From: Phyllobates terribilis
Taxonomy: Eukaryota
Assembly: GCF_046119375.1 (NCBI RefSeq)
Contig: NW_027362767.1
Location: 241,056,001 to 241,120,000 of the forward strand
DNA length: 64,000 nucleotides
Direction: 5' to 3'
Each line of letters begins with the position of its first letter. Positions within the stretch are counted from its first letter, which is position 1. The translations under genes were made by a program, and so were the position numbers. Under the pieces are notes generated by a model. It was not told the DNA's origin. It was given only the letters and a program-made list of their open reading frames with translations, and searched no databases. Shown piece by piece: positions 1-48,700 of the stretch.

Positions 1-2770
1 AACACCGGATTAATCCTCCAGGACGTAGGAACCTCCAGCCTAACAGCAGATTGGTTAACTATCTGAAGCACCTTAAAGGGCCCTACGAACTTGGGACCCA
101 ATTTTTTAGAAGGAATCCTCAATCGCAGATTCTTAGAGGACAACCAAACCATGTCACCAACAGCAAACAAAACCTCTTGCCGTTTCCTATCAAAGTACCT
201 CTTAGATTTTTTGTTAGCCTCCTGAAGATTACCACGCACATCCGTCCAAACTCTCTCCAAATCACCGGAAAAACTCTCCTCCTCAGGCACAGCCGAAACC
301 AATTTGGAGAATGACCCAAAAGACGGATGTCTCCCAGAACAACAAAAAAAAGGCGAACACCCAGCAGAAGAGGATGTATGGTTGTTAAGAGCAAATTCAG
401 CAAGTGGCAGAAACTCAGACCACCCCTCTTGATTGTCTGCCACAAAACAACGCAAGAACTGCTCAACATCCTGGTTCTTCCTTTCTGTCTGGCCATTAGA
501 CTCAGGATGATATCCGGATGAAAACGACAAATGGACTCCCAACCTGTCACAAAAGGCACGCCAAAAACGAGCCACGAACTGAGGTCCCCTATCAGAAACA
601 ATGTCAGTAGGAACACCATGTAGTCTGACAATCTCCTTGACAAAGGCCTTAGCGAGTGTCTTAGCTCAAGGCAGTTTGATAAAGGGAACCAAGTGACACA
701 TCTTGCTAAAACGGTCCACGACCACCCAGATGACCGTGAAACCTTCAGAGGGAGGAAGGTCAGTAATAAAGTCCATAGCCAGATGTGTCCAAGGTGCACT
801 AGGAACCTCCAGAGGGCAAAGCAACCCCGCAGCAGGAGCATGCGAAGACTTGGATCTAGCACACACAGTACATTGGCGCACCCACTTAATGACTTCCTTC
901 TGCCATCCAGGCCACCAAAAACTGCGACCCACAAGTCTCTTGGTCTCAGAAATTCCTGGATGACCTGCCAACCGAGTCTCATGACACTCAACAAACAAAG
1001 CTTTCCTAAAGGTCCTAGGCACAAACAACCTCCCATGGGGAGTGTTAGATGGGGCATTCTCCTGTGCTTTAAGAATCTCATCCTCCAAAACGGAGTCCAA
1101 AGCAGCAATCACAACACCTTCTTGTAAAATGGTCTCCTCTTCCTCCTCAACACCGACCATGGGAGAAAAACTGCGAGACAAAGCATCCGCTTTAACATTC
1201 TTGGTACCCGGGATGTAAGTAACGGAAAAATTAAACCGCGAGAAAAAAAGTGCCCACCTAGCCTGACGGGCATTCAAGCGCTTGGCAGCATCAAGATAGA
1301 TCAGATTTTTATGATCAGTGAAAACCTGAATGGGAAAATCAGCACCTTCCAAGAGATGACGCCAGTGTTCAAATGCGAGTTTAATAGCCAGCAATTCCCG
1401 ATTACCGACATCGTAATTAAGTTCAGTCTCGGAAAAATTTTTTGAAAAAAAGGCACAGGGATGTACTGCATCCTTGTTTTCCTGAGACAACACCGCACCG
1501 ACCCCCACCGAAGAAGCATCAACCTCAACCAAAAACGGCTTAGTCACATCAGGCTGCATAAGGATGGGAGCAGAGGTGAACCTCTCCTTTAAAAACACAA
1601 AAGCTTCAATGGCCTCAGAAGTCCACTGAACCGCATTAGCACCTTTCCTGGTGAGATCGGTCAGCGGTTTGACAATAATAGAAAAAAATTTTATGAATTT
1701 TCTGTAATAATTGGCGAAACCCAAAAACCTCTGTATCGATTTCAAACCAATAGGCCTAGGCCATTCCTGTACAGCCTGAACCTTCACCGGGTCCATCTTA
1801 AAACCTTCACTGGAGATAATGTAGCCCAAAAAACTAATTCTCTGTACAGCAAACTCACATTTCTCCAGCTTAGCAAAAAGCGAATTGTCCATTAATAACT
1901 GTAATACCTCACGTACGCTCCGCCAATGAGACTCCAGATCAGGCGAATAAATCAAAATGTCATCCAAATACACAACCACATTTTTGCCGATTAAAGGTCT
2001 AAGGATGTCATTAATAAGATTCTGAAAAAATGCTGGAGCATTGGTAAGACCAAAAGGCATCACCAGATTCTCAAAATGACCCACAGGAGTGTTAAAAGCA
2101 GTCTTCCATTCATCACCCTCCTTCATGCGCAACAAATTGTATGCCCCCCGGAGATCAATTTTAGAGAACCACTTGGCCCCCACTAACTGGTTAAATAAAT
2201 CAGGAATCAATGGCAGTGGGTAAGGATTGCGTACAGTAATTTTATTAATCTCACGAAAGTCCAGACAAGGACGTAAACCGCCATCTTTTTTTTTTACAAA
2301 AAAAAATCCAACAGCCACAGGAGACTTGGAAGGCCTAATGTGACCAGCGGCCAAGCTTGTCTGTATGTATTCCTCCAAAGCCTTTCTCTCAGGAATAGTA
2401 AGATTAAATAAACGACTCTTAGGAAGAGTCGCTCCAGGGACAAATTCAATGGTACAATCATAGTCTCTATGGGGAGGCAAAACCTGCGACTCCTCCTCAG
2501 AAAAAAACTCTCCAAAAATCCTGAATAGGTACAGGCAATTCCCCTCTATCCACAGCAGCAATGCGCCCGTTACAACACTTGTCATAGCACTTAGGGCTCC
2601 AGGACTTAATTTCATTGGTAGACCAATCCAGTACAGGATTGTGCAATTTTAACCAGGGTAACCCCAATATTACTGGAGAAGGCAGATTATCCAATACCAC
2701 CAAATCCAAATTCTCTTGATGAATACCATTAATAGTGAGAGGAAATTCACAGACCTTGTGAGTAACACTC
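1..2770 (-). pseudogene. Disabled pol (end of protease, RT, RNase H, integrase) of outer Gypsy element A; runs off the left edge
   Basis: ORF 666-2615 has RT (YLDDILIYS), RNase H (VEVDASSVGVG) and integrase H2C2 (AGHPG...CTVC). An in-frame TGA at 666-668 is followed by the same frame continuing as the integrase core (FVKEIVRLHGVPTDIVSDRGPQF...SNGQTERKNQ). One extra base in the A5 run at 2514-2518 shifts the frame relative to the protease ORF 2497-2709. Confidence 0.93.
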
Positions 2771-3956
2771 TGTAACGGGTCTGGGAGGCGGAACCTCTGA
2801 GCTACTATACAAGGGGGAGGTCCTTGTAAGGGAGCGGGTGGCGACCAGGCAGGCAGTCACAGCAGGTGACCGGGACAGTCTCTAGAAGAACGGGCAGGAG
2901 GTCACGGCAAGTGACCGGGGCAGTCTCTGGATGAACAGGCAGATGGTCACGGCAAGTGACCGGGGCAGTCTCTGGGTGAACGGGCAGATGGTCACGGCAA
3001 GTGACCGGGGCAGTCTCTGGGTGAACGGGCTGATGGTCACGGCAAGTGACCGGGGCAGTCTCTGGGTAAAGGGTTGGTACGACCTGTGGCGGCAGATGAT
3101 AGACGTGAGCTCCCAGGTGAGCAGGCGAGAGTCTCTGGATAAACGGGTGGTCACAGCATGTGACGGCGGAGCCTCCAGGAAGACCAACAGACAGGCGGCA
3201 GATGAGCGCTCCCAGGTGAGCGGGCAGAAGTCTCTGGACAGGCGGGTGGTCACAGCACGTGACGGCAGAGCCTCCAGGTAGGCTAGCAGACAGGCAGCAG
3301 ATGAGCGCTCCCAGGTGAGCGGGCAGGAGTCACTGGACAGGCAGGTGGTCACAGCACGTGACGGCGGAGCCTCCAGGTAGGCTAGCAGGCAGGTAGCAGA
3401 TGTGCGCTCCCAGGTGAGCGGGCAAGCTGGTCCATAGACAGACTGACAAGAGTTGGAAGGCAGACCGTCGGACCTCAGGCAAGCAGGCAGGTAGTTGATG
3501 TGCGCTCCCAGGTGAGCGGGCAAGCTGGTCCTTAGACAGACTGACAGGAGTAGTAAGGCAGACCGTCGGATCTCAGGCTAGCAGGCCGGTAGCAGAATAT
3601 CAGGCAGGAATAAGACAGCAAGCTGGCAGGAATCTGGCAGGTATCTGGCAGGTAACTGGCAACGGGACCTGAGGGCTGAAGCAGAGTAGTGAACAGTGCA
3701 ACAACATTGCTCGGGCACCTCCATTTTGGAGGAGGTGCCTTATATATGGTGAAGTCCTCCGGCCATTGGCCGGGGACTCCTTAGGACGGCGCGCGCGGCC
3801 CCTTTAAGAGGGAGGGAGCGCGCGCGCGCCCTAAGCACAGTGGCCGGGAAGGAGCGCGCGCTGCCAGCAGAGCGGGAGGAGGACGCCGGGCTCGGAGCAG
3901 AGAGGTGAGGGGAACAGCGTCCCTGCCTAGCAGAGGGCAGGGACGCCGACGCTACA
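2771..3956 (-). repeat. 3' LTR of element B (1186 bp)
   Basis: Starts TGTAACGGG, ends GACGCTACA; near-identical to 8159-9342; TATATAA (minus strand) at 3740-3746; internal 45-bp and ~99-bp tandem units. Confidence 0.96.
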
Positions 3957-6900
3957 GTACCCCCCCCTTTAGGCCCCCCGTTTTTTAGGCCAGACAGAAA
4001 TTTAGCAAGGATAAGAGGGGCATGGATGTTCTCCCGGGGCTCCCACGTTCTCTCTTCAGGACCAAACCCCTTCCAATCTACTAGAAAAAAGGTCTTCCCT
4101 CTTACCCTTTTGGTGGCCAGAATGTTCTCTACCTCAAATTCGTTTTCAGCGGAAACCGGAGCAGGAGGCGTACCTGTAGACTTGGAAAAAGAGTTAAGTA
4201 CCACAGGTTTGAGGAGAGATACATGGGAGGAGTTAGGGATCCGCAAGTTGGCCGGGAGTTTCAATTTATAGGCCACCGGGTTGATCTGACTGATGACTTC
4301 CAGAGGACCGATGAACCGAGGCCCTAACTTATAGGAAGGAATCTTGAGCCGGACATACTTGGACGAGAGCCAGACCTTATCCCCTGGACGGAATTGAGGA
4401 GGATCCAGACGTTTTTTTTCAGCATGTCTTTTCATACGCTCGGATGACAGAAGGAGTGCGGACCGGGTACTCTCCCATGTGGAGGAAAATTTGTTAACAA
4501 GAGATTCCGCAGCCGGATTGTCCACCGAGGTGGAGACGGGAAACGGGATCCGAGGATGCTGACCGAAGACTACAAAAAACGGGGATTTGGAGGAAGATTC
4601 GCTCTCGTGATTGTTGTACGAGAATTCGGCCCATGGCAGGAGATCCACCCAGTCAGAATGGTGGGCATTAACGAAGTGCCGGAGGTAACTGGTCAGGATC
4701 TGATTGATCCGCTCCACTTGACCATTAGACTGTGGGTGGTAAGCGGAGGAGAAGTCCAGGGTGACGTCTAGCAATTTACAAGTGGCTCTCCAGAAACGAG
4801 AAGTGAACTGTACCCCACGATCCGACACGATGTGACGGGGCAGGCCATGAAGACGGAAGATGTGGCGGATAAAGTCTTTAGACAGCTCGGGTGCAGACGG
4901 GAGGCCTGGCAGGGGAATGAAGTGAGCCATCTTGGAAAAGCGGTCAGCGACCACCCAAATGACCGTACAACCGGCAGAGACGGGAAGATCAGTTATGAAG
5001 TCCATCGCTATATGCTGCCAGGGGGCAGCAGGTACTGGCAGAGGAAGAAGGCGACCGGCTGGCAGGTGTCTCGGAACTTTGTTGCGGGCACAGGACACAC
5101 AGGCAGAAACAAAGTCTATTACATCCTTGCGCAGGTTAGGCCACCAGTAATGCCGGGAAATAAGCTGGAGGGTCTTTTTCTGACCGGCGTGGCCAGCTAG
5201 TTTAGACGAATGACCCCAGTGTAGGATCTTCTCCCGATCAGGTACCGATACGAACGTCTTACCGGGAGGGAGACGATTTAGACTCACGGGAGCCACCTGC
5301 ATTACTCTGGCGGGATCGATGATATGTTTAGGTTCTTCCTCGAGATCAGATACCAGAAAGGATCGGGACAAGGCGTCTGCTTTGATGTTCTTGTCAGCCG
5401 GGCGAAAATGTAGAGCAAAATCAAAGCGAGCAAAAAACAAGGACCACCGGGCTTGGCGCGGATTAAGTCTCTGGGCATGCTGGAGATAAGCCAAGTTCTT
5501 GTGGTCAGTGTAAATTATTACCGGATGAAGAGCCCCCTCGAGTAGGTAACGCCACTCCTCCAATGCCAGCTTGATGGCCAATAGCTCTCGGTCTCCTATG
5601 GAATAATTGCGCTCAGAAGAGGAGAAGAGTTTGGAGAAGAAGCCGCAAGTTACCATCCTCCCGGAAGAAGATTTTTGAGTAAGTACAGCTCCGGCTCCAG
5701 AGGAGGAGGCGTCAACCTCCAGAAAGAACTGCTTGTTGCCGTCCGGACGATGCAGCACCGGGGCGGAAGAGAAGGCCTGTTTTAAGGAAAGAAAGGCCTC
5801 CTCTGCTTCGGGCGGCCACTCTTTGGGATTAGTGCCCTTACGGGTGAGCGCGGAAATTGGGGCAGTCCGGGAAGAGAAGTGCGGTATGAAGAGGCGGTAG
5901 TAATTGGCGAAGCCCAGGAACCGCTGAATGGCCTTCAACCCCTCCGGTCGGGGCCATTTCTCGATGGCAGACAGTTTCTCTGGATCCATTCGTAGGCCGG
6001 TCTGAGAAATAATGTAGCCCAAAAACGGAAGCGAGGTCTGCTCAAAGAGGCACTTCTCGTATTTAGCGAAGAGGTGGTTCTGCCTGAGCCTGAGCAGGAC
6101 CTGACGAACGTCCCTCCGGTGAGTCTGGAGATCCGGAGAGAAGACCAAGATGTCGTCCAGGTACACCACAACGCAGGAGTAGAGAAGGTCCCGGAAGATG
6201 TCATTGACCAACTCTTGAAAGACGGCAGGAGCGTTACAGAGACCAAAGGGCATTACCAGATATTCATAGTGGCCGTCCCGGGTGTTGAATGCAGTCTTCC
6301 ATTCATCCCCTTGACGGATACGGACCAGGTTGTATGCCCCACGGAGGTCCAGTTTGGTGAAGACTCTAGCCCCCCTCAGGCGATCAAATAATTCTGGAAT
6401 GAGCGGAAGGGGGTACTTATTCTTCACCGTGATCTGGTTAAGGCCTCTATAGTCTATACAGGGACGGAGAGAGCCGTCCTTCTTTTTTACGAAGAAGAAG
6501 CCTGCTCCCGCCGGGGAGGTAGATTTCCGGATGAATCCCCTGGCCAAATTCTCCTCAATATATTCGGACATCGACCGGGTCTCAGCAGCGGACAATGGGT
6601 AAATACACCCACGGGGAGGAGTAGTACCGGGTAACAGGTCGATAGGACAGTCGTATGGTCTATGAGGGGGTAATGTCTCTGCCTCCTTTTTATTAAAGAC
6701 ATCAGCAAATGACCAATAGGGAATCGGAAGTCCAGGTAGATTAGTTGGGGTAGGAGAAGGACGGACGGGATGAACAGGAACCAAACAAGTCTTATGACAG
6801 TCCTGTCCCCAGCGAAGGACTTCTCCGGTCTGCCAGTCAAGCACGGGTGCATGTCTCTGGAGCCAAGGTAGACCTAGTAAGAGGGCATGAGAGAGTCCAG

Positions 6901-7218
6901 GCAGAACATGAAAAGAGATGCTCTCAGAATGCAGCATTCCCACCTGCAGAGTTACGGATTCGGTGATGAGTTGGATGGGACGTGGTAAGAGGCCCCCATC
7001 CACAGCAGCGACAGATAATGGTACAGCCAGAGGTTTGGTGGGAATGCGGTATTTTTCTACCAGGGACTGTGAGATAAGATTCCCGGCCGCTCCAGAGTCA
7101 AGTTGGGCTAGTTCGAAATAACGATTCTCCCCGCAGATAATAGAGACTGACAGTAGCAGAGATGGAGAGGATTTATTCTTGTCTAGGTTGACCTCTCTGA
7201 GCGAACCTAGACACAGGC
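3740..7218 (-). CDS. Pol of element B (protease-RT-RNase H-integrase-chromodomain), reached by -1 frameshift from gag
   Basis: The frame of the 1087-aa ORF is open upstream to the slippery site and there encodes the protease active site LDSGAAGNLI. Also YLDDILVFS (RT), LEVDASSSG (RNase H), HIVSDRGVQF/SNGQVERINQ (integrase) and FEVENILATKRVRGKTFFLVDWKGFGPEERTWEP (chromodomain). Confidence 0.95.
3957..3985 (-). other. Polypurine tract of element B
   Basis: Purine-rich stretch on the minus strand (G runs and AAAG...GTAC) immediately before the 3' LTR TG. Confidence 0.8.
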
Positions 7219-7225
7219 GTTTCCC
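7165..7225 (-). other. -1 ribosomal frameshift signal: G_GGA_AAC plus stem-loop/pseudoknot
   Basis: GGGAAAC at 7219-7225 in the correct gag phase; 5-nt spacer; 10-bp stem TGTCTAGGTT/AACCTAGACA; loop GAGAGG can pair with downstream CCTCTC. Confidence 0.85.
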
Positions 7226-8145
7226 GACCTCTCCGGGCAGGTACGGATCCGGTGCTCCTTACTGCCACAGTAGAAGCAGCTCCCTTCGGCACGGCGTAAG
7301 TCCTGACGGGTTTTGACCATCTTGGTCTGGTCGACCTGCATAGGCTCAGGAGAGTGTACCTGGGGAGAGACGGATTTCTGAAAAGTAGGAGCTAGACGTG
7401 GAAACCTCCTCTCACGGGTGACCTCTTTGGCACGCTCCTGGAACCGTAGGTCAATCCGGGTGGCAAGAGTTATTAGGTCATCGAGAGTGGTAGGAATGTC
7501 CCGACCGGCAAGTTCATCTTTAATACGGCCGGACAGACCCTCCCAGAAGACGGATACCAGAGCGTCGTTATCCCAGGCCAGCTCCGAGGCAAGGGTACGG
7601 AACCGTATGGCATATTGGCCCACGGTGAGACTTCCCTGACGGAGGCGTAGCAGAGATGATGCGGATGAGGTCTTCCGTCCGGGTTCGTCGAAGACTTTCC
7701 GGAAAGCCGTGAGAAAGGCAGGCAAGTCGGACACCAGGGGGTCTCCTCTCTCCCATAGAGGATTTAGCCAGGCCAGGGCCTCCCCGGTGAGATGGGACAT
7801 GATGAAGGCAATTTTGGCCCGGTCGGAGTTAAACTGGTGAGACAGGAGTTCAAAGTGCAGGGTGCGATGATTTATGAAGCCCCGAGCCTGGGCGGAGTCG
7901 CCTCCGAAGCGAGGAGGTGCAGAAAGCCGGGGTCCGGGGTAGGATACCATGGTATTGGTGGGCAGCGGAGCTGCCGGGTTGCGAGTCATGGCACTGGCGG
8001 TGGTTGCTGGTGGAGCAGTCAGAGTGTCCAGGCGAGAATTGACATTCCGCAGGTGACCCAGGATGGACTCCTGTTGGGACCTCTGACGGGACAGTTCATG
8101 ACAGAGGTCCGAGAGCGAGGGAGCTTGGGTGCCACCGGGTTCCAT
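7207..8145 (-). CDS. Gag of element B (312 aa)
   Basis: PEG10/RTL-like capsid motifs (PPRFGGD, KIAFIMSHLTGEALAW, LRQGSLTVGQY) and CCHC knuckle CFYCGSKEHRIRTC. Confidence 0.95.
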   Translation of the reverse strand: MEPGGTQAPSLSDLCHELSRQRSQQESILGHLRNVNSRLDTLTAPPATTASAMTRNPAAPLPTNTMVSYPGPRLSAPPRFGGDSAQARGFINHRTLHFELLSHQFNSDRAKIAFIMSHLTGEALAWLNPLWERGDPLVSDLPAFLTAFRKVFDEPGRKTSSASSLLRLRQGSLTVGQYAIRFRTLASELAWDNDALVSVFWEGLSGRIKDELAGRDIPTTLDDLITLATRIDLRFQERAKEVTRERRFPRLAPTFQKSVSPQVHSPEPMQVDQTKMVKTRQDLRRAEGSCFYCGSKEHRIRTCPERSGNACV

Positions 8146-8146
8146 G

Positions 8147-8156
8147 GCCCGAGCAA
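8147..8156 (-). other. Non-tRNA primer-binding site of element B (UUGCUCGGGC), self-priming type
   Basis: Lies 2 nt inside the 5' LTR edge; no TGG/tRNA complement; perfect complement in the LTR at 9095-9104, starting 30 nt downstream of the TATA box. Confidence 0.8.
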
Positions 8157-8158
8157 AC

Positions 8159-9342
8159 TGTAACGGGTCTGGGAGGCGGAACCTCTGAGCTACTATACAA
8201 GGGGGAGGTCCTTGTAAGGGAGCGGGTGGCGACCAGGCAGGCAGTCACAGCAGGTGACCGGGACAGTCTCTAGAAGAACGGGCAGGAGGTCACGGCAAGT
8301 GACCGGAGCAGTCTCTGGATGAACGGGCAGATGGTCACGGCAAGTGACCGGGGCAGTCTCTGGGTGAACGGGCAGATGGTCACGGCAAGTGACCGGGGCA
8401 GTCTCTGGGTGAACGGGCAGATGGTCACGGCAAGTGACCGGGGCAGTCTCTGGGTAAAGGGTTCGTACGACCTGTGGCGGCTGATGGTAGACGTGAGCTC
8501 CCAGGTGAGCAGGCGAGAGTCTCTGGATAAACAGGTGGTCACAGCATGTGACGGCGGAGCCTCCAGGAAGACCAACAGACAGGCTGCAGATGAGCGCTCC
8601 CAGGTGAGCGGGCAGAAGTCTCTGGACAGGCGGGTGGTCACAGCACGTGACGGCAGAGCCTCCAGGTAGGCTAGCAGACAGGCAGCAGATGAGCGCTCCC
8701 AGGTGAGCGGGCAGGAGTCACTGGACAGGCAGGTGGTCACAGCACGTGACGGCAGAGCCTCCAGGTAGGCTAGCAGGCAGGTAGCAGATGTGCGCTCCCA
8801 GGTGAGCGGGCAAGCTGGTCCATAGACAGACTGACAAGAGTTGGAAGGCAGACCGTCGGACCTCAGGCAAGCAGGCAGGTAGTTGATGTGCGCTCCCAGG
8901 TGAGCGGGCAAGCTGGTCCTTAGACAGACTGACAGGAGTAGTAAGGCAGACCGTCGGACCTCAGGCTAGCAGGCCGGTAGCAGAATATCAGGCAGGAATA
9001 AGACAGCAAGCTGGCAGGAATCTGGCAGGTATCTGGCAGGTAACTGGCAACGGGACCTGAGGGCTGAAGCAGAGTAGTGAACAGTGCAACAACATTGCTC
9101 GGGCACCTCCATTTTGGAGGAGGTGCCTTATATATGGTGAAGTCCTCCGGCCATTGGCCGGGGACTCCTTAGGACGGCGCGCGCTGCCCCTTTAAGAGGG
9201 AGGGAGCGCGCGTGCCCTAAGCACAGTGGCCGGGAAGGAGCGCGCGCTGCCAGCAGAGCGGGAGGAGGACGCCGGGCTCGGAGCAGAGAGGTGAGGGGAA
9301 CAGCGTCCCTGCCTAGCAGAGGGCAGGGACGCCGACGCTACA
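8159..9342 (-). repeat. 5' LTR of element B (1184 bp)
   Basis: TG...CA; about a dozen substitutions and one 2-nt indel versus the 3' LTR, counted by eye; TATATAA at 9128-9134. Confidence 0.96.
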
Positions 9343-10375
9343 CACTCTTCAAGGGAGAGCCATCGACAGAAACCACAGCAATAGGGGATGACAAAGTTTT
9401 AGGTTCTAATCTAAGTTTTTCCAAGAATCCCCCATCAATCACATTCAGAGTAGATCCACAATCCACAAATACCCGAAATTCAATTAATTCATCCTGAGCA
9501 GCAGTAGTGGCAGATAGGAATACTCCCTTAGAATTTAAACAGGCAATACGGGCATGACTGACCATATTTTTTTTTTCTTTCTTCATACGAAGCACACAGC
9601 TCTTAATCAAATGACCAGAATTTCCGCAATAGAAACACAAGCCTTCAGAAAGTCGGCGGTCTTTTTCCTGAGAGCGGGGTGCCATCGCCCCAATTTCCAT
9701 CGGCTCTCCATTGTCAGCACTGAACCTCTCAGGACTCGAAGCTGACATAGCAGAGGATTTGCTCTCATTAACCCTTGCACGCAGTCTCCTGTCCACCCCT
9801 ATAGCTAATTGCATTGCCTCCTGCAAGTTTCCAGGTGTGGGATAAGCAATCAGTAAATCCTTAACCCTTTCACCTAGTCCTGCAAGAAACAAGCTTTTCA
9901 AAGCTGAATCGTTCCACCCCACCTGGGCAGACCACCGACGGAAGTGAGAACAATAGTTTTCCACATTACCTGATCCCTGCCTCAAACGTCTTAATTCAGA
10001 CTCAGCAGATGAGACACGATCAGGATCATCGTACAATAAACCCAAAGCAGAAAAAAAACTATCCACTGATCTAAAGCACGGATCACTAGGTTGGAGAGAG
10101 AAGGCCCATCCCTGAGGATCTTTGCGCAAAAGTGACATTATGAACCCTATGCGCTGTGATTCATCACCAGAGGATCCGGGTCTCAAACGAAAATATAATA
10201 GACAAGCATTTTTAAAAGAAAAAAAATCTTGTTGTTCGCCAAAAAATAGATCAGGCAGACGTACCTTTGGTTCCACAAAATGCGCTCCAGAACAGCTACT
10301 CACGTGTTGTTGGAGCTTGGCCACCTCCAGAGAGAGTCCCTGCAAGCGTTGAGCCAAATCTTGCACCGAGACCAT
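9343..10375 (-). pseudogene. gag plus N-terminal protease of outer element A, interrupted by element B
   Basis: Gag motifs, CFYCGNSGHLIKSC knuckle and FVDCGSTLNVID protease all in one frame. Removing element B and one target-duplication copy restores the frame: ...PLKSVTHKVCEFPLTINGIHQENLDLVVLD. Confidence 0.93.
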
Positions 10376-10445
10376 GATGGAAAACTGGAGGTCTTTCCTT
10401 AGAGAATTTATTTATTTATTTATTTTTTTTTATGGCTGGACTTAC

Positions 10446-10868
10446 TGTTATGATCTGCTACAGAGACTAAGGAAAGACAGGAGATCTGTCCCTACAATAG
10501 AACTAAACTAGATCCCTACGATGTAACGGGGAACCTGATCCTGCGATCAGACCCGCTAAAGTCCTCGGCTAGTCTGTACGGAGACCTATAGATGTGAGGG
10601 AGGAATCCCTACAAGAACTAGGGACTGGGAAAAGTTGAACACCTCCTAGCAGAAATCGTAGCAGTCAAAGACAAACACACAACAAAAAGTAAAGAGGTCA
10701 GAAGACCTAGCAAAACTAACAGAGAACGGCAACAGAGCACCAAGCTAGCTCAACAGTAGTAAATACAAATGAAGTCCAGCAATGCCAGGAGGGCGGAGCC
10801 GGATTAAATAGACAAAACTGGTCATGTGACCAGCAAACTAAAAAAAAACTAACAGGAGAGTTGTAACA
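10446..10868 (-). repeat. 5' LTR of outer element A (~423 bp)
   Basis: TGTTA...TAACA termini; TATTTAA (minus) at 10804-10810; followed by the PBS-position motif and the gag ATG at 10375. The right boundary could instead be the TAACA ending near 10854. Confidence 0.75.
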
Positions 10869-13800
10869 ACTACTATAATACTGCCCCATATGTACAATAA
10901 TATAACTACTATAATACTGCCCCCTATGTACAAGAATATAACTACTATAATACTGCCCCCTATGTACAAGAATATAACTATTATAATACTGCCCCCTATG
11001 TACAAGAATATAACTTCTATAATACTGCCCCCTATGTACAAGAATATAACTAATATAATGCTGCCCCCTATGTACAAGAATATAACTACTATAATACTGC
11101 CCCCCATGTACAAGAATATAGCTACTATAATACTGCCCTCTATGTACAAGAATATAACTACTATAATACTGCCCCCTATGTACAAGAATATAACTACTAT
11201 AATACTGCTCCTATGTGCAAGAATATAACTACTATAATACAGCTCCTATGTGCAAGAATATAACTACTATAATACTGCCCCCCATGTACAAGAATATAAC
11301 TACTATAATACTGCCCCCTATGTACAAGAATATAACTACTATAATACTGCCCCTATGTACAAGAATATAACTACTATAATACTGCTCCTATGTGCAAGAA
11401 TATAACTACTATAATACTGCTCCTATGTGCAAGAATATAACTACTACAATACTGCCCCTATGTACAAGAATATAACTACTATAATACTGCTCCTATGTAC
11501 AATAATATAACTACTATAATACTGCCCCCTATGTACAAGAATATAACTACTATAATACTGCTCCTGTGTACAAGAATATAACTAATATAATACTGCCCCC
11601 TATGTACAAGAATATAACTACTATAATACTGCTCCTATGTACAAGAATATAACTACTATAATACTGCCCCCTGTGTACAAGAATATAACTACTATAATAC
11701 TGCTTGTATGTACAAGAATATAACTACAATAATACTGCCCCCTATGTACAAGAATATAACTACTATAATACTGCTCCTATATACAAGAATATAACTACTA
11801 TAATACTGCTCCTATGTACAACAATATAACGACTATAATACTGCTCCCTATGTACCAGAATATAACTATTATAATACTACTCCTATGTGCAAGAATATAA
11901 CTACTATAATACTGCCCCCTATGTACAAGAATATAGCTACTATAATACTGCCCCCTATGTACAAGAATATAACTAATATAATACTGCTCCTATGTACAAG
12001 AATATAACTACTATAATACTGTCCCCTATGTACAAGAATAACTACTATAATACTGCTTCTATGTACAAGAATATAACTACTATAATACTGCTCCTATGTA
12101 CAAGAATATAGCTACTATAATACTGCCCCCTATGTACAAGAATATAACTACTATAATACTGCTCCCTATGTACAAGAATATAACTACTATAATACTGTCC
12201 CCTATGTACAAGAATATAACTACTATAATACTGCTCCTATGTACAAGAATATAACTACTATAATACTGCTCCCTATGTACAAGAATATAACTATTATAAT
12301 ACTGCCCCCTATGTACACGAATAACGCTACTATAATACTGCTCCTGTGTACAAGAATATAACTACCATAATACTGCTCCTATGTACAAGATTATAACTAC
12401 TATAATACTGCCCCTATGTACAAGAATATAGCTACTATAATACTGTCCCCTATGTACAAGAATATAAATACTATAATACTGTCCCCTATGTACAAGAATA
12501 TAACTACTATAATACTGCTCCTATGTACAAGAATATAACTACTATAATACTGCTCCTGTGTAGAAGAATATAACTACTATAATACTGTCCCCTATGTACA
12601 AGAATATAACTACTATAATACTGCTCCTATGTACAAGAATATAACTACTATAATACTGCTCCCATGTACAAGAATATAACTACTATAATACTGCCCCCTG
12701 TGTACAAGAATATAACTACTATAATACTGCTTGTATGTACAAGAATATAACTACAATAATACTGCCCCCTATGTACAAGAATATAACTACTATAATACTG
12801 CTCCTATATACAAGAATATAACTACTATAATACTGCTCATATGTGCAAGAATATAACGACTATAATACTGCTCCCTATGTACCAGAATATAACTATTATA
12901 ATACTGCTCCTATGTGCAAGAATATAACTACTATAATACTGCCCCCTATGTACAAGAATATAGCTACTATAATACTGCCCCCTATGTACAAGAATATAAC
13001 TAATATAATACTGCTCCTATGTACAAGAATATAACTACTATAATACTGTCCCCTATGTACAAGAATAACTACTATAATACTGCTTCTATGTACAAGAATA
13101 TAACTACTATAATACTGCTCCTATGTACAAGAATATAGCTACTATAATACTGCCCCCTATGTACAAGAATATAACTACTATAATACTGCTTCTATGTACA
13201 AGAATATAACTACTATAATACTGTCCCCTATGTACAAGAATATAACTACTATAATACTGCTTCTATGTACAAGAATATAACTACTATAATACTGCTCCTG
13301 TGTACAAGAATATAACTACTATAATACTGCCCCCCATGTACAAGAATATAACTACTATAATACTGCTCCCTATGTACAGTAATATAACTACTATAATACT
13401 GCCCCTATATACAAGAATATAACTACTATAATACTGCTCCTATGTACAAGAATATAACTACTATAATACTGCTCCCTATGTACAAGAATATAACTATTAT
13501 AATACTGCCCCCTATGTACACGAATAACGCTACTATAATACTGCTCCTATGTACAAGAATATAACTACTATAATACTGCTCCTATGTACAAGAATATAAC
13601 TACTATAATACTGCCCCTATGTACAAGAATATAACTACTATAATACTGTCCCCTATGTACAAGAATATAAATACTATAATACTGTCCCCTATGTACAAGA
13701 ATATAACTACTATAATACTGCTCATATGTACAAGAATATAACTACTATAATACTGCTCCCTATGTACAATAATATAACTACTATAATACTGCCCCTATAT

Positions 13801-16800
13801 ACAAGAATATAACTACTATAATACTGCTCCTATGTACAAGAATATAACTACTATAATACTGCTCCCTATGTACAAGAATATAACTATTATAATACTGCCC
13901 CCTATGTACACGAATAACGCTACTATAATACTGCTCCTATGTACAAGAATATAACTACTATAATACTGCTCCTATGTACAAGAATATAACTACTATAATA
14001 CTGCCCCTATGTACAAGAATATAACTACTATAATACTGCCCCTATGTACAAGAATATAACTACTATAATACTGTCCCCTATGTACAAGAATATAAATACT
14101 ATAATACTGTCCCCTATGTACAAGAATATAACTACTATAATACTGCTCATATGTACAAGAATATAACTACTATAATACTGCTCCTGTGTAGAAGAATATA
14201 ACTACTATAATACTGTCCCCTATGTACAAGAATATAACTACTATAATACTGCCCCCTGTGTACAAGAATATAACTACTATAATACTGCTTCTATGTACAA
14301 GAATATAACTACTATAATACTGCCCCCTATGTACAAGAATATAACTACTATAATACTGCCCCCTATGTACAAGAATATAACTACTATAATACTGCTCCCT
14401 ATGTACCTGAATATAACTACTATAATACTGCCCCTATGTACAAGAATATAACTACTATAATACTGCCCCTATGTACAAGAATATAACTACTATAATACTG
14501 CTCCTATATACAAGAATATAACTATTATAATACTGCTCCTATGTTCAAGAATATAACTACTATAATACTGCCCCCTATGTACAAGAATACAGCTACTATA
14601 AAACTGCCCCCTATGTACAAGAATATAACTAATATAATACTGCTCCTATGTACAAGAATATAACTACTATAATACTGTCCCCTATGTACAAAAATATAAC
14701 TACTATAATACTGCTTCTATGTACAAGAATATAACTACTATAATACTGCTCCTATGTACAAGAATATAACTGCTTTAATACTGCCCCTATGTACAAGAAT
14801 ATAACTACTATAATACTGCTTCTATGTGCTAGAATATAACTACTATAATACTGCTCCTGTGTACAAGAATATAGCTACTATAATACTGCCCCCCCATGTA
14901 CAAGAATATAACTACTATAATACTGCTCCCTATGTACAATAATATAACTACTATAATACTGCCCCTATATACAAGAATATAACTACTATAATACTGCTCC
15001 TATGTACAAGAATATAACTACTATAATACTGCTCCCTATGTACAAGAATATAACTACTATAATACTGCCCCCTATGTACACAAATATAGCTACTATAATA
15101 CTGCTCCTATGTACAAGAATATAACTACTATAATACTGCTCCTATGTACAAGAATATGACTACTATAATACTGCCCCTATGTACAAGAATATAACTACTA
15201 TAATACTGCCCCCTATGTACAAGAATATAAATACTATAATGCTGTCCCCTATGTACAAGAATATAACTACTATAATACTTCTCCTATGTACAAGAATATA
15301 ACTACTATAATACTGCTCCTGTGTAGAAGAATATAACTACTATAATACTGTCCCCTATGTACAAGAATATAACTACTATAATACTGCTCCTATGTGCAAG
15401 AATATAACTACTATAATACTGCCCCCTATGTACAAGAATATAACTACTATAATACTGCTTCTATGTACAAGAATATAACTACTATAATACTGCTCCTGTG
15501 TACAAGAATATAACTACTATAATACTGCCCCCCCATGTACTAGAATATAACTACTATAATACTGCCCCCCCATGTACAAGAATATAACTACTATAATACT
15601 GCCCCCTATGTACAAGAATATAACTACTATAATACTGCTTCTATGTACAAGAATATAACTACTATAATACTGCTCCTGTGTACAAGAATATAACTACTAT
15701 AATACTACCCCCTATGTACAAGAATATAGCTACTATAATACTGCCCGCTATGTACAAGAATATAACTAATATAATACTGCTCCTATGTACAAGAATATAA
15801 CTACTATAATACTCCTATATACAAGAATATAACTACTATAATACTGTCCTCTATGTACAAGAATATAACTACTATAATACTGCCCCCTATGTACAAGAAT
15901 ATAACTACTATAATATTGCCCCCTATGTACAAGAATATAACTAATATAATACTGCTCCTATGTACAAGAATATAACTACTGTAATGCTGCTCCCTATGTA
16001 CCAGAATATAACTACTATAATACTGCCCCTATGTACAAGAATATAACTACTATAATACTGCCCCTATGTACAAGAATATAACTAATATAATACTGCCCCT
16101 ATGTACAAGAATATAACTACTATAATACTGCCCCCTATGTACAATAATATAACTACTATAATACTGCCCCTATGTACAAGAATATAACTACTATAATACT
16201 GCCCCTATGTACAAGCATATAACTACTATAATACTGCTCCTATGTACAAGACTATAACTACTATAATACTGTCCCCTATGTACAAGAATATAACTACTAT
16301 AATACTGCCCCCTATGTACAATAATATAACTACTATAATACTGCCCCTATGTACAAGAATATAACTACTATAATACTGCCCCCTATGTACAAGAATATAA
16401 CTACTATAATACTGCCCCCTATGTACAAGAATATAACTACTATAATACTGCCCCCTATGTACAAGAATATAACTAATATAATACTGCTCCTATGTACAAG
16501 AATATAACTACTATAATACTGCTCCCTATGTACCAGAATATAACTACTATAATACTGCCCCTATGTACAAGAATATAACTACTATAATACTGCCCCTATG
16601 TACAAGAATATAACTACTATAATACTGCCCCTATGTACAAGAATATAACTACTATAATACTGCTCCTATATACAAGAATATAACTACTATAATACTGCTC
16701 CTATGTACAAGAATATAACGACTATAATACTTCTCCCTATGTACAAGAATATAACTACTATAATACTGCTCCCTATGTACCAGAATATAACTATTATAAT

Positions 16801-17086
16801 ACTGCTCCTATGTACAAGAATATAGCTACTGTAATACTGCCCCCTATGAACAAGAATATAACTACTATAATACTGCTCCCTATGTACAAGAATATAACTA
16901 ATATAATACTGCTCCTATGTACCAGAATATAACTACTATAATACTGCCCCTATGTACAAGAATATAACTGCTATAATACTGCCCATATGTACAAGAATAT
17001 AACTACTATAATACTGCTCCTATATACAAGAATATAACTACTATAGTACTGCTCCTATGTACAAGAATATAACGACTATAATACTG
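10869..17086 (+). repeat. 35-37 bp satellite (TATGTACAAGAATATAACTACTATAATACTGCYCC[C]), ~170-175 units
   Basis: Direct reading of the array; length variation is in the C-run; 12-aa periodic pseudo-ORFs. Confidence 0.98.
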
Positions 17087-17091
17087 CCAGA

Positions 17092-18065
17092 CAGTATTAT
17101 AGTAGTTATATTCTTGTACATAGGGGACAATATTATAGTAGTTATATTTTTGTACATAGGAACAGTATTATATTAGTTATATTCTTGTACATAGGGGGCA
17201 GTATTACAGTAGTTATATTCTGGTACATAGGGAGCAGTATTATAATAGTTATATTCTTGTACATAGGGGCAGTATTATAGTAGTTATATTCTTGTACATA
17301 GGGGGCAGTATTACAGTAGTTATATTCTGGTACATAGGGAGCAGTATTATAGTAGTTATATTCTTGCACATAGGAGCAGTATTATAATAGTTATATTCTG
17401 GTACATAGGGAGCAGTATTATAGTAGTTATATTCTTGTACATAGGGAGAAGTATTATAGTAGTTATATTCTTGTACATAGGAGCAGTATTATAGTAGTTA
17501 TATTCTTGTACATAGGGAGCAGTATTATAGTAGTTATATTCTTGTATATAGGAGCAGTATTATAGTTGCTATATTATTGTATATAGGGGCAGTATTATAG
17601 TAGTTATATTATTGTACATAGGGAGCAGTATTATAGTAGTTATATTCTTGTACATGGGGGGGCAGTATTATAGGAGTTATATTCTTGTACATAGGAGCAG
17701 TATTATAGTAGTTATATTCTTGTACATAGGAGCAGTATTATAGTAGTTATATTCTTGTACATAGGAGCAGTATTATAGTAGTTATATTCTTGTACATAGG
17801 GGACAGTATTATAGTAGTTATATTCTTGTACATAGGGGCAGTATTATAGTAGTTATATTCTTGTACATAGGGGTCGGTATTATAGTAGTTATATTCTTGT
17901 ACATAGGAGTCAGTATTACAGTAGTTATATTCTTGTACATAGGAGTCAGTATTACAGTAGTTATATTCTTGTACATAGGGGCAGTATTATAGTAGTTATA
18001 TTCTTGTACATAGGGGTCGGTATTATAGTAGTTATATTCTTGTACATAGGAGTCAGTATTATAGT
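17092..18065 (-). repeat. Same satellite in inverted orientation, ~27 units
   Basis: Reverse-complement units begin after the junction TATAATACTG-CCAGA-CAGTATTATA. Confidence 0.97.
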
Positions 18066-18177
18066 CCCCGATATACTCGATGGGAGACAAGTCCGGAGTC
18101 GCTGTAGGCCGTAATAGCACGATTAGGACACGCAGTCCCTGCTGACAGCGCTTTTCTTTAACATAATAAATATGAAG

Positions 18178-26801: not shown

Positions 26802-41672
<14,871 letters not shown>

Positions 41673-45751: not shown

Positions 45752-48700
45752 ATGAGCGCCCCGGGGCAGACCGCCAGGATGGTGCAACCTAACGAAGGCT
45801 CCAGCAGCAGCTTCACACCGCCGTGTACTGGAGGGCCAGGAGACATGTCCTTGGGAAAGGCTGATATCGTCCCCCCTGAAATATGCAATCACGAGGCCTT
45901 CCAGCGCTTGAGGGCTGAGAACCAGGATCTGCGAGGTGAGAACACGGCCCACAGCAAAACGGCCTCACACCGTGTGTCACATTACACTATAACGTATAGA
46001 TTCCCATTTACCTGTAACCCGGACCTTTAGTAGTCAGTGTGCACATCCTGTCTGCTTAAAAAGATTTTCCATTACTATGATACTCTCATCTCTATCAGAT
46101 CAGTGGTGGTCCAGCACCTGCACCCCCCACGGATCAGCTATTACCAGCTCTGGCAGCGGCCGGATGGGGGTCCCACCAACCACTTAAATCACTGTGCAGG
46201 AGTGAGTCTGTATACCTTGGTCTGTGAGCGTGGTGTACAGACCTATAGGCTTACTGTTGAGCTCCTACACCGCTGATCACTCCTGCAGGGGCCACGCACT
46301 TCAGAATGGTGTTTTGAGCAATCGGTAGGGGTGTCTGGACCCAAGCCCCCATAAACCCGTCGCTCGGTGCAGCCCCTATTACATATGAAAAGTTTTTGAA
46401 AATGATAGTAACCCTTTAAAGTGCAGCTCTGTTCACATCTGCATCAATGTCTAGTTCGCAGATTTTGTCCTGTCAAAATGGCAGATTTCTCTGCATAACC
46501 TGAGACCCCTCTGCAAGGCAAAGGGGTCCGTTGTGTGACTAACCCGGCAGAGCATTACAGCTTCGGTTCTGAAGGGAAGCAAGTGTGAACACAGCTGAAG
46601 CTTCTTCGTATACAATTCCCTCACTTCTAACCAGTGCTTAGAGGGTCCCTGCACTTATAGAAAACTTGATCTCATCTGATGGACAGTGGGAGAAATGGAC
46701 AATCTGCAAATCACTTTATTCAGGAATTTTGTTCTCTCGCCCATAAAAAAAAAATCACTACAAAGAGACAGATTATGGGAAGTGGGGGTGGGCCTCTGTC
46801 GCGCTGGCGGGAAGTGGGGGCGGGCCTCTGTCGCGCTGGCGGGAAGTGGGGGCGGGCCTCTGTCGCGCTGGCGGGAAGTGGGGGCGGGCCTCTGTCGCGC
46901 TGGCGGGAATTGGGGGCGGGCCTCTGTCTCCTGATTTTGTTTTTCTCAAACTATATACAGGCGTTAACAGAGAAGCGGACTTTTACTTCTGGGCAGACAA
47001 GCAGTAGAACAATGGTAGAAGTAGTGCGTACTGGGAAGGGAGGGAAAGAAAATTTCAGCACCTGTAGTGCTGGCAGAATGTTGACAGCTAAGTTAAAGAG
47101 CACGAGAACCGAGACAGTTCCTGGACATATTAGACTTATTCGTGCAGCAAAAATTGTTTACATTTTTGGGGGAATGATGGCTGTAACACTGAGCTATTGT
47201 ACGTGTGTTAGGTGACGGGAACGCTCCGGGGACCACCTGCCCTCTGTATAATACCCAGTGCAGGGTCTGAGACGTTTGCCATTTCTTCCCGTTCCTCTGT
47301 GAACCCCCTCTGCCTTCCTCTTCCCCACCAGTGGCTTTGGAGCAGAGTAACACCATGCTCAGGAAGAGACACGGCGAGATGCTGGAGTTTCAGGAGACGC
47401 AGAGGAGAGAGCGGGAGTTCATCGTTTTCAAGTTCAATGAAGCCAAAAGCCTGGTGCTGAGGCTATCGACCGAGCGCGACTCCCTGCAAGGTGAACTGGA
47501 GGAGGCGAAAAGACACCTAACAGAGGCCACGGCCACCAGAGAAGACGAGCCCATGGCCGAGGGACCCATCGAGGTGACCGCCTGCTTCTTCCTGCACCTC
47601 CACGCTCCATGTAACGCAGGGACTCCCTGGGCTGTGAGCTTCTCCAGCTATCAGCCAGGTGCCCAATCTGTGCCCGGGCTAATACCCCAGGCCCTGAGCT
47701 GCACGCTTTCACACTCCTATGTCCCGATTTGAGTTGTGTCAACGTGCATTAGTTAGAATATTGCATTTTCTCCTTGTTTCGTAGCACATGTCTGCATTAG
47801 CTTTTTAAAGCTCTGTTCACACTGGCGCTGTAGGCGTCCACTTATCCTGGAAGCTGTAACAAGTCCAAGCTGCCACCGATCCTATAAGTTGCACTGGGGT
47901 GTAGTAACATATGATGGATACCCTTAGTGCAAGTTTGGACATAGCCTATAGGACCCCCTTACACATTAATGTAAAATTCAGTGAGACCGGACCCCTATCT
48001 ATGGAGGGTGCTTCTTCTGGATTGGACATGTTAAATTACAACACCCAACTCCCTGCAGCAGTCACAATTACAGTAATTGACCACTGCAGCCAATCATTAG
48101 AAAAAAAAACAAAAAACTTTTAAATTCCTTGTGTGGCTGGTCCGTGTGTCCTATGCTGCTCTGCTCGCTGGGTATAGTAATAAGTGACCTGGAATGATTA
48201 GATGACCCTGTTGGGGGCGCTGCCGCTATCCTCCGTGCTCGCTCTGTCCTCTGCCTCTCTCCTCGGCTCGGCCCCTGCTTGACTGCTGTGCTGTGTGTCA
48301 TTAGGCTGACAGCCCTGAGAGCTCTCTGTCCTCCTGTGAAACTCTGACCCAAAGTATGTGCGAAGCGCTGAGAGAGCCAGCACGAAATCACGCGGGGCCA
48401 CCCCGAGCCGAGCAGGTGAGACCGAGTCCGCACGTCTGTCAGTATCCAGGTAACAAAATACTTGTATTCCTATGAAAAAGCATTGCGCAGTTCTTCTGAT
48501 GCTCTTCCTGGCAGTTACAACCTACAATCTCCTATGTCACCCAATCCCGATCCCACTGTGTAAGGACACACCTCTTTGACTAATAATAAGGCCTAGCTGA
48601 CAGCTCATTCATACATTTCCAGGAGGAACAAAAGAGGATCAGCACAATGTAGAGTTCTAGGAAATTTAAGTGCAAGTACAGTGGTGTGAAAAGGTGTTCG

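Follow-up and report, generated by a model that had tools for sequence, protein, structure and literature searches.

The window analysed here, a stretch of 64,000 nt from the genome of Phyllobates terribilis, contains two LTR retrotransposons, A and B, and raises the question of how reverse transcription is primed in elements that lack TGG, the mark of a tRNA primer site, directly after the LTR. A precedent is offered by Tf1/Tf2 of Schizosaccharomyces pombe, for which the available excerpts of the literature give self-priming as shown, and by Tj1 of S. japonicus, for which they give it as proposed (PMC7175516, PMC4600332, PMC5341516, PMC11042837). In Tf1, the RNA's initial 11 bases are reported to pair with its primer-binding site (PBS), and RNase H to cut between bases 11 and 12 (PMC7175516, in excerpt). 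In similar excerpts, PMC6317226 describes the Tf1/sushi group 'from yeast and vertebrates' as self-priming, and PMC4600332 calls self-priming 'implicated' from fungi to vertebrates. We consider it probable, at roughly 85%, that A and B likewise prime reverse transcription with their own stretch of 9-10 nt below the TATA box, as Tf1 does. The mechanism itself is already known, having been reported for vertebrate Tf1/sushi elements; features that may be new here are how strong the covariation is, a spacer of 2 nt and an unpaired C that follows the helix.

Both elements are Ty3/gypsy chromoviruses, with gag followed by protease, RT, RNase H and integrase between LTRs that are bounded by a 5-bp duplication, and they are nested: B sits inside A, as the CACTC duplication flanking B indicates (Table 1). 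The gag of B matches the Pfam families Retrotrans_gag, Ty3_capsid and DUF4939, and its sole match among the solved structures of the PDB is PEG10 (E 1.9e-8). SH3_Tf2-1 is also present in B, and a chromodomain lies at the C-terminus of its integrase (PF00385, E 3.3e-11). For A, a chromodomain-like stretch was seen in L001, which covers DNA just before the window, by eye in the translation only. A was itself inserted in an AT-rich satellite with a 35/36-nt repeat, which occupies about 7 kb of the window (10870-18124), switches orientation near 17 kb and also extends before the window (L001).

Table 1. Features of the nested elements B and A, in coordinates of the 64,000-nt window unless L001 is named
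Feature	Position	Strand	Details
B 5' LTR	8159..9342	-	1184 nt, TG...CA; differs from the 3' LTR by 12 mismatches and a single 2-nt gap
B 3' LTR	2771..3956	-	purine tract (3960-3971) and AC before the LTR
B TATA box TATATAA	9128..9134	-	first T (9134) at -30 from the predicted start
B predicted self-primer	9095..9104	-	GCCCGAGCAA; would be nt 1-10 of the RNA, given a start at G9104 (predicted start)
B PBS	8147..8156	-	TTGCTCGGGC, read 8156-8147; 10 nt
B GT spacer; unpaired C; gag ATG	8158-8157; 8146; 8145	-	
B U5 arm	8177..8187	-	predicted pairing with leader 8110-8102 or, as subfamilies B2/B3 have it, with 8144-8138
B gag frame (stop to stop)	7207..8244	-	capsid domain and CCHC knuckle
B pol frame	3740..7258	-	protease, RT, RNase H, integrase, SH3_Tf2-1, chromodomain
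B target-site duplication CACTC	2766..2770	+	second copy 9343-9347
A 5' LTR	10446..10868	-	423 nt
A 3' LTR	L001:8789-9211, just before the window		4 mismatches plus the terminal base against the 5' LTR
A target-site duplication GTAGT			within the 35/36-nt satellite
A TATA-like box TATTTAA	10804..10810	-	first T (10810) at -30 from the predicted start
A predicted self-primer	10772..10780	-	GCTGGACTT; would be nt 1-9 of the RNA, given a start at G10780 (predicted start)
A PBS	10435..10443	-	AAGTCCAGC, read 10443-10435; 9 nt
A GT spacer; unpaired C	10445-10444; 10434	-	
A U5 arm	10467..10478	-	predicted perfect 12-bp stem with leader 10402-10391, enclosing the PBS
A gag frame	9338..10411	-	CCHC knuckle; extends up to the B insertion
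A pol	666..2648	-	RT, RNase H, integrase zinc finger
A integrase remainder	119-1108	-	different frame, continuing outside the window

The two elements share a layout in which the LTR ends in ACA and is followed by GT, the PBS and a C, so that the PBS starts 2 nt past the LTR end at 8159 in B and at 10446 in A. The original prediction that neither element has a TGG primer site is borne out directly after both LTRs, and its account of B, in which 8147-8156 is complementary to 9104-9095 with TATATAA beginning 30 nt upstream at 9134, proved exact. Its account of A stood as regards the complementarity, the primer stretch at 10780-10772 and the 30-nt spacing from TATTTAA at 10810, but had placed the PBS one base off (10436-10444 instead of 10435-10443). 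The geometry that it called identical is so for the 2-nt spacer and the 30-nt distance to the TATA box but not for the length of the helix, B having 10 bp and A 9 bp, with no extension to either side in either element. A complement of this length arose anywhere in the dinucleotide-shuffled LTR in 25 of 3000 shuffles for B and 41 of 3000 for A. In the 423-nt LTR of A, TATAWAW (at least 6/7) matches nothing but the box at -30, and in the LTR of B the only such matches are the box at -30 and an overlapping one at -32. A pattern made of the sequences flanking the PBS of B has 18,165 genomic matches, with the same PBS in 91 of the first 100 listed, and the corresponding pattern for A has 6,902, with the same PBS in 90 of the first 100 listed. 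The exact pair of primer and PBS was found in 27 of 30 copies of the B family and 24 of 30 copies of the A family.

A survey of 102 stretches of 10 kb around matches to four Pfam families, hand-picked from the match lists for diversity and long frames, revealed 12 distinct types of primer/PBS pair in seven families (B1-B3, C1-C2, D1-D3, A, E, F and G). All 12 types match their own LTR at 9/9 positions, as against a mean of 4.9 and a maximum of 8 for cross-pairs. Position 1 is always G-C, and at each of the positions 2-10 between two and four kinds of Watson-Crick pair occur. A pyrimidine precedes the primer in 12/12 types, and a TATA-like box (at least 5/7) is present at -30 to -32 in 12/12, ties being resolved in favour of -30. 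A single rule, fixed after the first families had been seen, was positive for 68 of the 91 gag starts with enough upstream DNA (102 loci), compared with 3, 3 and 8 when the site was reversed, complemented or left unchanged (identity), respectively; these positive counts are not independent events, because the copies are kin. The 23 uncalled gag starts include visibly decayed copies (L004, L021, L082), and the others could conceal a family without pairing. L018-L020 were omitted as controls, their LTRs overrunning the 10-kb stretch, and L223 counts only in the denominator of loci. The covariation check that accompanied the original prediction passes strongly, both across and within families. 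However, the description of A and B as unrelated was wrong, since their RTs are 60% identical and fall in neighbouring clades of an RT tree that was built from copies of this genome; A and F, both with 9-nt spacing, are sisters on the same tree. The companion claim that the complementarity is maintained independently in the two was accordingly overstated, as one chromovirus lineage inherits the mechanism while its letters diverge. The PBS of C2 (L009) resembles what we take to be the initiator-Met tRNA site of plants without its TGG, by chance or as a vestige. PBS-directed tandem insertion, considered for family G, is unsupported, each locus having one PBS.

Paired changes are also seen within families. 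The B lineage changed its pair from B1 to B2 to B3, first at nt 6 and then at nt 4, and these steps are nested on the RT tree; C1 and C2 differ by a double change at nt 7, and D1, D2 and D3 by double changes at nt 3 and 4. The two PBS alleles of family C, which have 494 and 410 exact genomic matches, were sampled in 60 copies (the first 30 of each allele list, all on one contig), and in 51 of the 53 scorable copies the allele of the primer, 500-740 nt upstream, agrees with that of the PBS. The association has an r2 of 0.855, while the best of 2154 other column states, drawn from U3, R, U5, leader and gag of the family C copies, reaches 0.598; simple hitch-hiking would not give this, but it would follow if selection acted on the pair or if the primer were copied into the PBS. 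The copies of family C are mosaic, several of them having R and U5 of one subfamily with the leader of the other, which is consistent with frequent template switching, and L090-L149 are extensive two-subfamily mosaics across R, U5, leader and gag. On the reading that we favour, the match between PBS and primer is maintained by selection, to which copying of a retained primer into the next PBS may possibly add. The discordant copies L117 and L125 were considered as traces of such copying, but ordinary point mutation fits them. In the B family no trace of primer-to-PBS copying was seen in L240 and L249, whose changed PBS stands with the old primer intact, as expected from decay after insertion.

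In the mechanism that we propose, RNA polymerase II would start at G9104 in B and G10780 in A, as the spacing from the TATA box suggests. By analogy with Tf1, the 5' end of the RNA would fold back onto the PBS, aided by a stem between U5 and leader, and a cut by RNase H after nt 10 (B) or 9 (A) would release the 3'-OH. Minus-strand DNA would then extend from the primer across the 2-nt spacer into U5, and the 3' LTR would restore the initial 9-10 nt of R. The 2-nt spacer is mirrored by 2 nt between the purine tract and the 3' LTR. Integrases of retroviruses and Ty3 process 2 nt at the ends of their DNA, and the spacer and its mirror fit such processing.

The predicted U5-leader stem of A has 12 bp and -16.5 kcal/mol, with none of 200 shuffles as good, and the shuffles as good out of 200 number 0 for D1, 0 for D2b, 5 for D3, 3 for B1 and 4 for G. 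B2, B3 and E show a weak stem, and none above chance was found in families C and F and in one D2 copy. In A, B, D and G, and more weakly in E, the U5 arm of the stem stops 18-24 nt short of the LTR end. A three-duplex 'pretzel' is described for Tf1 and other Tf1/sushi elements (PMC10085805, in excerpt); here, its central duplex, that of primer and PBS, is present, while the third one, next to the LTR end, does not rise above chance in 16 of 17 leaders. Extension of the helix via the spacer into U5 is not conserved either, exact extension amounting to 0-1 base. The primer/PBS helix is part of the minimum free energy (MFE) fold in 11 of 17 representative leaders. In the A element of the window it occurs in both the MFE and the centroid fold, with a pairing probability of 0.96; for B it is absent from the MFE fold, has a mean pairing probability of 0.02 and costs 3.0 kcal/mol when forced, and 6 of 30 B family copies have it in their MFE fold. 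The U5-leader stem and the primer helix cross and hence can never appear together in one such fold, and folds of 700-1000 nt are weak evidence in either direction.

These predictions bear on the possibility that the same 9-10 nt prime in trans, from a second packaged genome or from short capped solo-LTR RNAs, instead of folding back in cis. Priming in trans would accord with the lack of the cis helix in the predicted MFE fold of the B element of the window and of 24/30 B copies, with the missing third duplex and with the thousands of LTR copies in these families. However, PBS and primer alleles of the same copy agree in 51/53 cases though both alleles are common, and the cis helix does form in 11/17 predicted folds, long-range MFE folds being unreliable; we regard the trans route as unlikely. 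Somewhat less probable still is that the helix of 5' end and PBS has a role in packaging, in dimerisation or in controlling gag translation while another RNA primes. Covariation demonstrates pairing and not priming, the gag ATG of B follows the PBS at a distance of 2 nt, and in B2/B3 this ATG is covered by the U5-leader stem, all of which would suit such a role. Against it, the paired stretch occupies the required primer site, 2 nt from the LTR end and with near-constant length, no alternative primer candidate suits 12 different sequences, and the identical layout primes Tf1 in the excerpted account (PMC7175516).

Priming by the 3' end of a tRNA is excluded, since no PBS begins with TGG. Half-tRNA priming, in which internal fragments of tRNAs would bind the PBSs, is very improbable. 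In its favour, primer positions 1, 2, 5 and 9 are almost constant, and the tRNA set was incomplete, tRNA-Lys(TTT) being the only one retrieved from the genome (14 of 30 loci scanned); yet the longest complement of tRNA-Lys(TTT) to any PBS in this screen is 3-6 nt, the 12 different sites each track their own LTR, and a tRNA primer would leave the match at TATA+30 without reason. By comparison, two tRNA-primed Ty3/gypsy families of the same genome (L074/L075 and L220/L221), alike in superfamily and LTR layout, differ in having TGG 3 nt after the LTR and a self-complement of only 5-6 nt, never above 6, and their RTs, 37-38% identical to that of B, form a separate, distant branch. That the matches arose by chance and were inherited by descent has a negligible probability: one match of 9-10 nt somewhere in an LTR does occur in about 1% of shuffles, but the fixed position and the repeated double changes, together with the covariation of 12 types, the 51/53 agreement in family C and the 68/91 gag starts against their controls, refute it.

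Returning to self-priming in cis, the first base on the PBS side past the helix is C in 22 of 23 loci and in all 12 types, and the primer is preceded by T or C but in no case by G. Three of the 4 family E loci have a helix that is longer by one base on the 5' side, and there the C shifts along with it. Reverse transcriptases can insert C opposite the m7G cap. We tentatively suggest, with more doubt than confidence, that the PBS is rewritten in every cycle from the retained capped self-primer and that the unpaired C is the copy, or partner, of m7G; alternatively, the C may be merely ancestral. About half of Tf1 cDNA retains a PBS copied from the primer, according to an excerpt of PMC11042837, which provides a possible way in which the PBS could come to track the primer. 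Were the cap reading true, start site and cap would be recorded in genomic copies with single-base precision, and a new primer allele would establish its matching PBS with no fitness valley to cross.

The elements resemble Tf1/Tf2/Tj1 in being chromodomain Ty3/gypsy elements without a tRNA site, in the U5 stem flanking the PBS and in a PBS complementary to the 5' end of the RNA, here a predicted end. They differ from Tf1 in a primer of 9-10 nt (perhaps 11-12 in E) instead of 11, in the 2-nt spacer between the CA of the LTR and the PBS, where the PBS of Tf1 apparently abuts the LTR (as a passage on ATAAC in the excerpted PMC11042837 implies), in a gag with a CCHC knuckle, in gag and pol occupying separate overlapping frames, and in a primer-PBS loop of 200-1060 nt; moreover, self-priming is here a prediction from sequence. 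The vertebrate Tf1/sushi elements (GyDB V-clade: Sushi-ichi, Amn-ichi/ni/san) are likewise vertebrate chromoviruses, and both self-priming and the pretzel are reported for this group in the excerpts (PMC6317226, PMC10085805); a placement with it gains indirect support from PEG10 as the sole PDB match of the B gag and from DUF4939 and SH3_Tf2-1; no mechanistic difference from them is shown, two of the three pretzel duplexes being found here. Vertebrate chromoviruses of the Amn-san type are the commonest LTR elements of frogs, as excerpted from PMC4131045. The literature searched, whose scope left the primary Tf1 papers and Butler 2001 outside, yielded neither start mapping nor an experimental test for a vertebrate element, and nothing about a C that stems from the cap and adjoins the PBS of a self-priming element.

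Self-priming is proven in fission yeast and, in the excerpted literature consulted, only predicted for vertebrate elements, for which the case is now about as strong as sequence permits. Exact predictions follow from it, namely the start base, the length of the primer and natural compensatory alleles, and copies number in the tens of thousands in the 10.6-Gb genome (at least 18,165 sites of B type and 6,902 of A type), which also supplies natural allele pairs. If A and B do prime themselves, a very abundant LTR lineage of this genome would be independent of host tRNA and would offer no target to 3'-tRNA fragments, which are described as acting on the PBS of tRNA-primed elements (PMC7472051, in excerpt). 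A shift of the start site by a few bases could also silence such an element, comparable to the alternative starts that switch Tf2 off in the excerpted account (PMC5341516).

Several further features of the LTRs were observed. B contains a perfect 9-bp hairpin (window 9101-9127, minus strand, -19.7 kcal/mol), which spans the predicted start and the first bases of the primer; it is possible only in RNA that contains U3, for example at the 3' end of the genome, where this modelled hairpin could mask the primer stretch in its second copy. A YY1-like motif, as judged from the consensus that we presume for YY1, immediately precedes the predicted start at 9106-9116 (minus strand) as well as in family C loci. 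In A, the LTR end, the spacer and the start of the PBS together read CA/GTAAGT (10440-10448, minus strand), which we take to be a consensus splice donor; splicing there would delete the PBS. None of 12 poly(A) hexamers occurs on the sense strand of the LTR of A (10446-10868) or B (8159-9342), whereas in family C an AATAAA precedes the LTR end by about 20-30 nt.

Within the assembly, the best 150 matches to Retrotrans_gag and the best matches to SH3_Tf2-1 are all on small unplaced contigs (G000, C2755-C8306). L018-L020 form their own branch of the RT tree and have LTRs of more than 2 kb, and the small-contig copies, including these three, are possibly foreign, plant-like DNA in the assembly. 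Elsewhere in the window, exons of G6PD and NEMO/IKBKG lie head to head on opposite strands, at 31459-31923 (minus strand) and 47271-47732 (plus strand), an arrangement also found at the human locus.
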